64,000 nt of DNA from the NCBI RefSeq assembly GCF_002854065.1, contig NZ_CP024147.1; one strand, given 5' to 3'. Below are positions 33,001 to 36,000 of the stretch, piece after piece. Position numbers: made by a program. Positions within the stretch are counted from its first letter, which is position 1, and every line of letters begins with the position of its first letter. The DNA comes from Escherichia coli (GTDB lineage Bacteria > Pseudomonadota > Gammaproteobacteria > Enterobacterales > Enterobacteriaceae).

Positions 33001-36000
33001 GTAAGCGTAAAGTCGCCATTATCGGTTCTGGCAACATTGGCACCGATCTGATGATTAAAATTTTGCGTCACGGTCAGCATCTGGAGATGGCGGTGATGGT
33101 CGGCATTGATCCTCAGTCCGACGGTCTGGCGCGTGCCAGACGTATGGGCGTCGCCACCACCCATGAAGGGGTGATCGGGCTGATGAACATGCCTGAATTT
33201 GCTGATATCGACATTGTATTTGATGCGACTAGCGCCGGTGCTCATGTGAAAAACGATGCCGCTTTGCGCGAAGCGAAACCGGATATTCGCTTAATTGACC
33301 TGACGCCTGCTGCCATCGGCCCTTACTGCGTGCCGGTGGTTAACCTCGAGGAGAACGTCGATCAACTGAACGTCAACATGGTCACCTGCGGCGGCCAGGC
33401 CACCATTCCAATGGTGGCGGCAGTTTCACGCGTGGTGCGTGTTCATTACGCCGAAATTATCGCTTCTATCGCCAGTAAATCTGCCGGACCTGGCACGCGT
33501 GCCAATATCGATGAATTTACGGAAACCACTTCCCGAGCCATTGAAGTGGTGGGCGGCGCGGCAAAAGGGAAGGCAATTATCGTGCTTAACCCAGCAGAGC
33601 CACCGTTGATGATGCGTGACACGGTGTATGTATTGAGCGACGAAGCTTCACAAGATGATATCGAAGCCTCAATCAATGAAATGGCTGAGGCGGTGCAGGC
33701 TTACGTACCGGGATATCGCCTGAAACAGCGCGTGCAGTTTGAAGTTATCCCGCAGGATAAACCGGTCAATTTACCGGGCGTGGGGCAATTCTCCGGACTG
33801 AAAACAGCGGTCTGGCTGGAAGTCGAAGGCGCAGCGCATTATCTGCCTGCCTATGCGGGCAACCTCGACATTATGACTTCCAGTGCGCTGGCGACAGCGG
33901 AAAAAATGGCCCAGTCACTGGCGCGCAAGGCAGGAGAAGCGGCATGAACGGTAAAAAACTTTATATCTCGGACGTCACGTTGCGTGACGGTATGCACGCC
34001 ATTCGTCATCAGTATTCGCTGGAAAACGTTCGCCAGATTGCCAAAGCACTGGACGATGCCCGCGTGGATTCGATTGAAGTGGCCCATGGCGACGGTTTGC
34101 AGGGTTCCAGCTTTAACTATGGTTTCGGCGCACATAGCGACCTTGAATGGATTGAAGCGGCGGCGGATGTGGTGAAGCACGCCAAAATCGCGACGTTGTT
34201 GCTGCCAGGAATCGGCACTATTCACGATCTGAAAAATGCCTGGCAGGCTGGCGCGCGGGTGGTTCGTGTGGCAACGCACTGTACCGAAGCTGATGTTTCC
34301 GCCCAGCATATTCAGTATGCCCGCGAGCTCGGAATGGACACCGTTGGTTTTCTGATGATGAGCCATATGACCACGCCGGAGAATCTCGCCAAGCAGGCAA
34401 AGCTGATGGAAGGCTACGGTGCGACCTGCATTTATGTGGTGGATTCTGGCGGTGCGATGAACATGAGCGATATCCGTGACCGTTTCCGCGCCCTGAAAGC
34501 AGTGCTGAAACCAGAAACGCAAACCGGCATGCACGCTCACCATAACCTGAGTCTTGGCGTGGCGAACTCTATCGCGGCGGTGGAAGAGGGCTGTGACCGA
34601 ATCGACGCCAGTCTCGCGGGAATGGGCGCGGGCGCAGGTAACGCGCCGCTGGAAGTGTTTATTGCCGCCGCGGATAAACTGGGCTGGCAGCATGGGACCG
34701 ATCTCTATGCGTTAATGGATGCCGCTGACGACCTGGTGCGTCCGTTGCAGGATCGTCCGGTACGAGTCGATCGCGAAACGCTGGCGCTGGGATACGCTGG
34801 TGTTTACTCCAGCTTCCTGCGTCACTGTGAAACGGCGGCGGCGCGTTATGGCTTAAGCGCGGTGGATATTCTCGTTGAGCTGGGCAAACGCCGAATGGTT
34901 GGCGGTCAGGAGGATATGATCGTCGACGTGGCGCTGGATCTGCGCAACAACAAATAATGATGACTGCCGAGAACGTGCATTTTGTATGCCCATCCCAGCA
35001 CGACTGCCGGATGCGGCGTAAACACCTTATCCGGCCTACGGGTGGCGTGAGAATTTGTAGGCCTGATAAGACGCGTTAGCGTCGCATCAGGCATCTGCAC
35101 CCGACTGCCGGATGCGGTAAACGTCTTGTCCGGCCTACGGATGGCGCGGGAATTTGTAGGCCTGATAAGACGCGTTAGCGTCGCATCAGGCATCTGCGCA
35201 CGACTGCCGGATGCGGCGTAAACGCCTTATCCGGCCTACGGATGGCGCGGGAATTTGTAGGCCTGATAAGACGCGCAAGCGTCGCATCAGGCATCTGCAC
35301 ACGACTGCCGGATGCGGCGTGAACGCCTTATCCGGCCTACATTTCGCCCGTAGGCAGTCATTAAATAGTTCTGATTACGCGGCTGGCAATGTATCAGTCG
35401 CGATTCACCTGCACTCGCAACGAGGTTCATCTTATGTCGACTCGTACCCCTTCATCATCTTCATCCCGCCTGATGCTGACTATCGGGCTTTGTTTTTTGG
35501 TCGCTCTGATGGAAGGGCTGGATCTTCAGGCGGCTGGCATTGCGGCGGGTGGCATCGCCCAGGCTTTCGCACTCGATAAAATGCAAATGGGCTGGATATT
35601 CAGCGCCGGAATACTCGGTTTGCTACCCGGCGCGTTGGTTGGCGGAATGCTGGCGGACCGTTATGGTCGCAAGCGCATTTTGATTGGCTCAGTTGCGCTG
35701 TTTGGTTTGTTCTCGCTGGCAACGGCGATTGCCTGGGATTTCCCCTCACTGGTCTTTGCGCGGCTGATGACCGGTGTCGGGCTGGGGGCGGCGTTGCCGA
35801 ATCTTATCGCCCTGACGTCTGAAGCCGCGGGTCCACGTTTTCGTGGGACGGCAGTGAGCCTGATGTATTGCGGTGTTCCCATTGGCGCGGCGCTGGCGGC
35901 GACACTGGGTTTCGCGGGGGCAAACTTAGCATGGCAAACGGTGTTTTGGGTAGGTGGTGTGGTGCCGTTGATTCTGGTGCCGCTATTAATGCGCTGGCTG

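Follow-up and report, generated by a model that had tools for sequence, protein, structure and literature searches.

A BIME-2 array of variable unit number between mhpE and mhpT of Escherichia coli and its possible effect on transporter expression

Introduction

In Escherichia coli, an array of repetitive extragenic palindromic (REP) sequences lies between mhpE, the last enzyme gene of mhpABCDFE, and mhpT, the gene for the 3-hydroxyphenylpropionate transporter, and the question raised by this locus is whether the array acts on the expression of the genes that it separates. We examined it in a 64,000-nt stretch of E. coli contig NZ_CP024147.1 (hereafter the window, to which all coordinates refer). 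Gene calls were taken from the RefSeq annotation of E. coli CUWW06, which was identical over the 1001 bases compared. A first-pass annotation of the window had placed a tandem array of bacterial interspersed mosaic elements (BIMEs) at 34960-35345, the second in the window, and had proposed that it probably acts as an intra-operon mRNA stabiliser/attenuator, setting expression of the catabolic enzymes apart from that of the transporter. The array is not new, as the literature already presents the mhpE-mhpT REP array as a hotspot for lac-amplification junctions (PMC3161906).

A canonical BIME-2 array in the mhpE-mhpT spacer

The mhpE gene (33944..34957, + strand), which appears in the list of open reading frames (ORFs) with 337 aa and in the RefSeq annotation as mhpE, for 4-hydroxy-2-oxovalerate aldolase, has its stop at 34957, and the ATG of mhpT lies at 35434, leaving a 476-bp spacer that encloses the array. 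Tandem Repeats Finder (TRF) returned a single tandem array at 34999-35340 with a period of 101, 3.4 copies, 92% matches and a score of 593, in agreement with the approximately 3.5 units of about 100 bp annotated previously, and a repeat search of the region recovered direct-repeat families of 127 nt and 41 nt at a spacing of 99-101 bp. The array is indeed downstream of mhpE, but not immediately so as had been annotated: it starts at 34999, the segment 34958-34998 is unique, and the first REP stem is 48 nt past the stop.

Pattern dissection resolved the array into seven REPs, four of the y and three of the z2 type, which alternate strictly as y-z2-y-z2-y-z2-y with neighbours in inverse orientation. 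Their lengths of 32-36 nt fall within the 30-40 nt of the imperfect palindromes by which REPs are recognised. On the + strand, the y REPs lie at 35006..35039, 35107..35138 (a 32-nt variant with a GCGGTAAACGTCTTGTCC core), 35206..35239 and 35307..35340, with CTAC feet at their 3' ends (35036, 35135, 35236 and 35337), and the z2 REPs at 35057..35092, 35156..35191 and 35257..35292, with GTAG feet at their 5' ends (35057, 35156 and 35257). Linkers measure 17 nt after y and 14 nt after z2. The spacer thus consists of a unique left segment of 48 nt (34958..35005, +, delimited by allele comparison), the seven REPs, and a unique right segment of 93 nt that runs up to the mhpT ATG.

Folded alone as sense RNA, each of the seven REPs forms a hairpin (-14.5 to -21.9 kcal/mol), confirming the palindromes that had been expected on folding; the first y REP folds at -15.9, the first z2 REP at -21.9 (z = -6.2) and the 32-nt y variant at -14.5 kcal/mol. 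The z-scores of five REPs lie between -3.8 and -6.2, with the z2 copies at about -6, and those of the two divergent y copies are -2.3 and -1.7. For RNA of the entire spacer, the folding energy is -238.6 kcal/mol (z = -8.7). An Rfam search of the spacer matched only naRNA4 (RF02564), with three minus-strand scores of 88.0, 87.2 and 64.1 bits and weaker plus-strand matches, one of them at 62.0 bits, against a gathering threshold of 59.5; given E-values down to 2e-14, the match is far beyond chance.

BIME-2 elements are defined by y and z2 REPs in inverse orientation, a short linker and multiple tandem copies whose number varies between strains (PMC3333891). When compared with this family, in the Gilson/Bachellier classification as given in PMC3333891, the array agreed in its y/z2 alternation, GTAG/CTAC feet, short linkers, tandem arrangement, extragenic location and strain variability, and no substantive difference was found. 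A search for the consensus of integration host factor (IHF), WATCAANNNNTTR, gave no match within 34958-35433; with this result and the short linkers, a BIME-1 or IHF-site assignment was rejected. On the strength of the TRF array, the alternation, the feet, the 17/14-nt linkers, the naRNA4 matches and the missing IHF consensus, it is effectively certain that the mhpE-mhpT array, noted previously as a BIME with REP palindromes and borne out here by TRF, REP dissection and annotation, is a canonical E. coli BIME-2. Sequences of this kind are abundant, the array query matching a median of at least 37 places per E. coli genome.

Several smaller features were observed around the array. To its right, GTAGGCAGTC (35350..35359, +) is present in all five of the E. 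coli alleles sequenced across the site (see below) and is probably, judging from its sequence, what is left of a GTAG-orientation REP after loss of the palindrome; in a divergent lineage of E. coli (L010) there is a longer version, GTAGGCCTGTATCAGTTTCAGTC, at the same site. As a recurring footprint, such a ‘hairpin-less REP’ (GACTGCCTAC) was discarded, the only other occurrence in the window (55392) being inside a 954-aa ORF and hence a coincidence. Just past the mhpE stop, TGACTGCC (34959-34966) is the inverted partner of GGCAGTCA (35353-35360); this 8-bp inverted repeat brackets the entire array in all five alleles, and the whole-spacer fold pairs both ends.

Unit number varies between E. 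coli strains

The allele survey was conducted with a query in which both flanks were joined and the array omitted, which located the site in 4,923 of 5,426 complete E. coli genomes. Spacer-length classes were drawn from 58 complete loci sampled at even spacing, and one allele sequence was compared per class. All five sequenced alleles fit the form y(z2-y)n with n = 0-4, that is, one to nine REPs, and share the 48-nt left and 93-nt right flanks save for a few base substitutions. The commonest allele in the sample (30/58 genomes) was n = 0, an insert of 41 bp with a single y REP, at the position of the fourth y REP of the window. Inserts of ~140 bp (n = 1) were found in eight genomes, of 243 bp (n = 2) in four, of 342 bp (n = 3, the window allele) in three and of ~443 bp (n = 4, K-12-like) in 13. 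This structure, together with the length classes, indicates that change at the locus proceeds in steps of entire 101-bp units.

The allele of K-12 MG1655 is alike in site, unit and flanks (the last identical in the sequences compared), but has 4.4 units, nine REPs and a 577-bp spacer, versus 3.4 units, seven REPs and 476 bp in the window. The 32-nt y variant, which is the second y in the window, has a near-identical counterpart in last position in the K-12 and 98E11 alleles, and this difference in placement points to a reshuffling of units. Gain or loss of 101-bp units could proceed by unequal recombination, slippage or the action of a REP-associated transposase. From such shifts in unit number, we infer that the array is a modifier that drifts and differs from strain to strain, and not a conserved set-point; nothing suggests a set-point that is fixed and selected.

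The array appears to be an insertion within Escherichia

A scan with MhpT, restricted to one genome per species, returned 40 loci. Where mhpE precedes mhpT outside Escherichia, as it does in 33 loci, the two genes share a strand and are separated by a REP-free spacer of 62-158 bp; these loci belong to Citrobacter, Klebsiella, Raoultella, Enterobacter, Kluyvera, Pseudocitrobacter, Pluralibacter, Entomohabitans and Prodigiosinella, with one each from Pseudomonas and Azomonas. Among the loci scanned, REPs at this site were confined to Escherichia. The short, REP-free spacers of the other genera suggest an insertion within Escherichia, and by this comparison the array looks like a genus-specific insertion into an ancestral mhpABCDFE-mhpT operon. 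Within the genus the site is not uniform: E. whittamii has two z2-y pairs, and in a divergent ‘E. coli’ lineage the array spans 682 bp and its linkers are 8 nt long. A further record, SFGO01000113.1 (‘MAG: Clostridiales bacterium’, a metagenome-assembled genome), encodes MhpE and MhpT ~100% identical to those of E. coli around a single-y-REP spacer, and almost certainly comes from E. coli, having been wrongly binned with a Clostridiales assembly.

A conserved hairpin precedes mhpT

The mhpT gene (35434..36645, +) has an ORF that is open over 35389/35434-36645; the CUWW06 annotation starts it at 35434, the ATG is invariant in a 27-species alignment, and a Shine-Dalgarno sequence, GAGG, is located at 35422-35425 (+). 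Between the array and this ribosome-binding site, ~33 nt upstream of the ATG, lies a hairpin (GCGGCTG / GCAATGTAT / CAGTCGC; 35379..35401, +) that is not part of the BIME. It was recovered from the 27-species alignment, from RNAalifold and from single-sequence folds, and has a stem of 7-8 bp and a conserved loop, GGCAAYGTAT, followed by a conserved TTCACCTGCA motif. The hairpin was present in every enterobacterial spacer examined, namely those of Escherichia, Citrobacter, Klebsiella, Raoultella, Enterobacter, Kluyvera, Pseudocitrobacter, Pluralibacter and Prodigiosinella.

In the alignment, 97% of cells are paired, versus 15-69% when the partner is slid, and compensatory changes occur in three of the seven pairs (7 cells); the covariation score was reached by none of 500 shuffles. 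RNAalifold predicted the helix independently, and single-sequence folds predicted it in 27/27 species, including Prodigiosinella, in which the stem sequence is entirely different. Six cells hold G:U pairs, which favours an RNA element of the sense strand over a DNA palindrome. No Rfam family matched the hairpin and no description of it was found in the literature. It was rejected as an intrinsic terminator, as there is no T-run, and also as a sigma-54 promoter (GG-N10-GC), the second G of the ‘GG’ being A in two species and no RpoN/NtrC peak being listed at mhpE/mhpT in genomic SELEX (gSELEX). Anti-Shine-Dalgarno pairing of a conserved ACCTG sequence with the mhpT ribosome-binding site was predicted in Klebsiella, Raoultella, Enterobacter and Pluralibacter, and not in E. 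coli or Citrobacter.

This comparison suggests that the hairpin predates the REP insertion and is more likely than the array to be the ancestral determinant of mhpT expression; as to its role, our guess would be an intercistronic stabiliser of ancestral origin or an mhpT leader element. Genera with mhpE-mhpT spacers of 98-125 bp, including Kluyvera, have a further hairpin in the upstream part of the spacer, ahead of the conserved one. The loop of this further hairpin is similar in Kluyvera (e.g. CCGGTCGGCAATGTACTGACCGG), pointing to local duplication of the conserved element.

Transcription signals around the array

A scan of 34800-35500 revealed no intrinsic terminator in the spacer, the sole match (35468-35488) being inside mhpT, and no sigma-70 consensus promoter in the same interval. 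A TTCTGA-17-TATCAG arrangement, considered as an mhpT promoter, was a weak candidate picked by eye that does not match the sigma-70 consensus, and was set aside. Using as query a 17-mer MhpR operator, no second operator was found near mhpT within three mismatches, the sole match being at 28529-28545 in the mhpR-mhpA spacer. Among the RpoN/NtrC gSELEX entries listed for the mhp region, peaks were located at mhpR/mhpA and mhpC/mhpD and none at mhpE/mhpT, and literature searches found no promoter data for mhpT. The lack of a sigma-70 consensus, along with the conserved mhpE-mhpT adjacency in the 33 non-Escherichia loci, suggests that transcription from the mhp promoter continues into mhpT.

Comparison with REP325 and other intercistronic REPs

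The naRNA4 family is derived from REP325, a BIME-2 that separates yjdM from yjdN in K-12, and the two arrays are alike in their y and z2 units, in a period of ~100 bp and in their placement between two tandem genes. They differ in orientation, number and composition. On the yjdM sense strand the order is z2(..CTAC)-y(GTAG..), whereas on the mhp sense strand it is y(..CTAC)-z2(GTAG..), so that, with respect to the transcript, the mhp array is inverted relative to REP325; REP325 has 12 hairpins and the mhp array of the window seven. Due to the opposite orientation of the two arrays to their host transcripts, the sense-strand C/G ratio also differs, REP325 being C-rich (1.29) and the mhp array slightly G-rich (0.91), the excess of G being in the 17-nt linkers.

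Experiments have shown that REP325 both stabilises the mRNA upstream of it and attenuates the gene downstream, partly via Rho, producing a ladder of truncated transcripts; its deletion lowers yjdM and raises yjdN, such that their expression ratio falls from ~35 to ~1, and bicyclomycin raises read-through from 23% to 39%, only for the full 12-hairpin array (bioRxiv 10.64898/2026.03.23.713779). The same study found the upstream/downstream expression ratio raised genome-wide in tandem gene pairs separated by REPs (bioRxiv 10.64898/2026.03.23.713779). REPs also define the 3' ends of trimmed Rho-dependent transcripts (PMC6061677).

At malE-malF and hisJ-hisQ, one or two REPs separate the genes. These are examples of intercistronic REP stabilisers (Newbury et al. 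1987, as cited elsewhere). REP hairpins lie there between genes of one operon, as they probably do at the mhp locus, and the upstream gene is expressed more highly; the mhp array differs in being a long BIME-2 of variable copy number. According to a rule associated with Liang, Rudd and Deutscher, a REP within ~15 nt of a stop codon reportedly cuts translation of the upstream gene. This rule was judged inapplicable to mhpE, whose first REP is 48 nt past the stop.

How the array may act on the mhp operon

The analogy with REP325, together with the stable hairpins of the sense RNA, makes the proposal of an intra-operon mRNA stabiliser/attenuator plausible. Under this proposal, MhpR and 3-hydroxyphenylpropionate would activate the mhpA promoter, and RNA polymerase would enter the array. 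The seven hairpins of the transcript would block 3'-to-5' exonucleases and so protect the upstream mhpA-E message, and the 476-nt untranslated, structured stretch would uncouple transcription from translation, such that some transcripts would end, or be trimmed, before mhpT. Fewer transcripts spanning mhpT would place transporter expression below that of the enzymes, and the size of the effect should rise with unit number. By this analogy, the array probably dampens transporter expression a little. Taken as a whole, the explanation that we favour, with moderate confidence, is that of a BIME-2 inserted in Escherichia, with a drifting unit number, which protects the mhpA-E mRNA and lowers read-through to mhpT.

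Several observations weigh against this explanation. No genus sampled outside Escherichia has the array, and a single REP is the most frequent state among the sampled E. coli genomes; any regulatory effect must therefore be dispensable, as half of these E. coli have one REP and other genera none. Co-transcription of mhpE and mhpT is deduced from synteny and the missing consensus promoter, and curated E. coli databases presumably give mhpT as a transcription unit of its own. The conserved hairpin at 35379-35401 might already do the intercistronic job. The inverted orientation and G-rich sense strand may make Rho loading weaker at the mhp array than at REP325, fragments of which, with 2-4 hairpins, show no Rho dependence (bioRxiv 10.64898/2026.03.23.713779).

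Alternative explanations

The alternative to which we give most credence, as a possible though improbable account of the locus, is that the array is essentially neutral, selfish DNA with no selected function at the locus, which spread and expanded by means of a REP-associated tyrosine transposase, unequal recombination or both; its effect on mhp expression, if any, would be incidental. Its restriction to Escherichia would be expected of such an element, as would the range of one to nine REPs with a single REP the commonest state, the differing order of variant units between alleles and the differently built arrays that other Escherichia lineages (L009, L010) have at the same site; variable BIME-2 copy number is moreover general, and has been linked to TnpA-REP activity (PMC3333891). 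A purely neutral element fits less well with the retention of at least one REP-length insert in 58/58 sampled loci and the presence of one or more y REPs in each of the five alleles sequenced, or with the genome-wide expression bias of REP-separated tandem gene pairs. The two accounts are not exclusive, since a neutral origin is compatible with the explanation favoured above and a measurable effect would still be possible. We consider it unlikely that mhpT has its own promoter and that the array protects or terminates the 3' end of the mhpABCDFE transcript, rather than acting within an operon. Papers do write the operon as mhpABCDFE, many REPs are placed at operon ends, and the conserved non-coding hairpin and TTCACCTGCA motif just upstream of mhpT could carry regulatory signals; yet neither a sigma-70 consensus in 34800-35500, nor a second MhpR operator (≤3 mismatches), nor an RpoN peak among those listed was found for the mhpE-mhpT spacer, other genera have spacers of only 62-75 bp and free of terminators, typical of co-transcribed genes, and the G:U pairs of the hairpin point to an RNA element of the sense strand.

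Still less probable, in our estimation, is a main role at the DNA level, in which the array would be a strong site of DNA-gyrase binding and cleavage that absorbs supercoiling, and a rearrangement hotspot prone to form structures. BIME-2 elements hold more than their share of gyrase cleavage sites, chiefly within y REPs and with no dependence on transcription (PMC6379681), and the mhpE-mhpT REP array was found in ~20% of sequenced lac-amplification junctions (PMC3161906). Gyrase cleaves only a subset of BIME-2 elements, however, and the mhpE/mhpT locus was not found in those gyrase Topo-seq supplements of PMC6379681 that were searched, which counts against this role; being a rearrangement hotspot is a property and not evidently a selected function, and the variability in copy number applies here as well. 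We regard as very improbable indeed that the array encodes minus-strand, naRNA4-like small RNAs that bind HU and condense the nucleoid. The three minus-strand RF02564 matches (88, 87 and 64 bits, all above the gathering score of 59.5) are what would recommend it, but they mirror shared BIME-2 sequence and not a tested RNA, the best-scoring strand is antisense to the mhp genes, and the function of naRNA4 itself is disputed for its founding member (bioRxiv 10.64898/2026.03.23.713779).

Other features of the window

The mhpE-mhpT array had been called the second in the window, and the first was located at 12509-13224, with a period of 94, 7.6 copies, 93% matches and seven naRNA4 matches on the + strand. 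It sits between prpE (end near 12484) and codB; the annotation of this strain gives codB as a pseudogene, interrupted by an internal stop. In the lacI-mhpR interval (~25800-27550), the window encodes a GlxA-family regulator pseudogene and a metallo-hydrolase of the metallo-beta-lactamase (MBL) fold, both absent there in K-12, in which, unlike in the window strain, lacI and mhpR are direct neighbours.

Implications

As a discovery the array carries little weight, BIME-2 elements being textbook repeats of E. coli and the rearrangement hotspot near lac having been described already. The conserved, covarying hairpin is an older regulatory candidate for mhpT. We tentatively put forward, as a doubtful but possible extension, that BIME-2 unit number, at one to nine REPs, forms a heritable, stepwise rheostat on the transporter:enzyme ratio, superimposed on the older hairpin at 35379-35401 that would govern mhpT. 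Should this be true, the natural mhp alleles would be a ready allelic series in which to relate REP number to read-through and mRNA stability. With alleles of the form y(z2-y)n, n = 0-4, near-identical flanks and an inducible operon, the locus offers a clean system, graded by hairpin number, for the recently proposed model of REPs as dual terminators and stabilisers.

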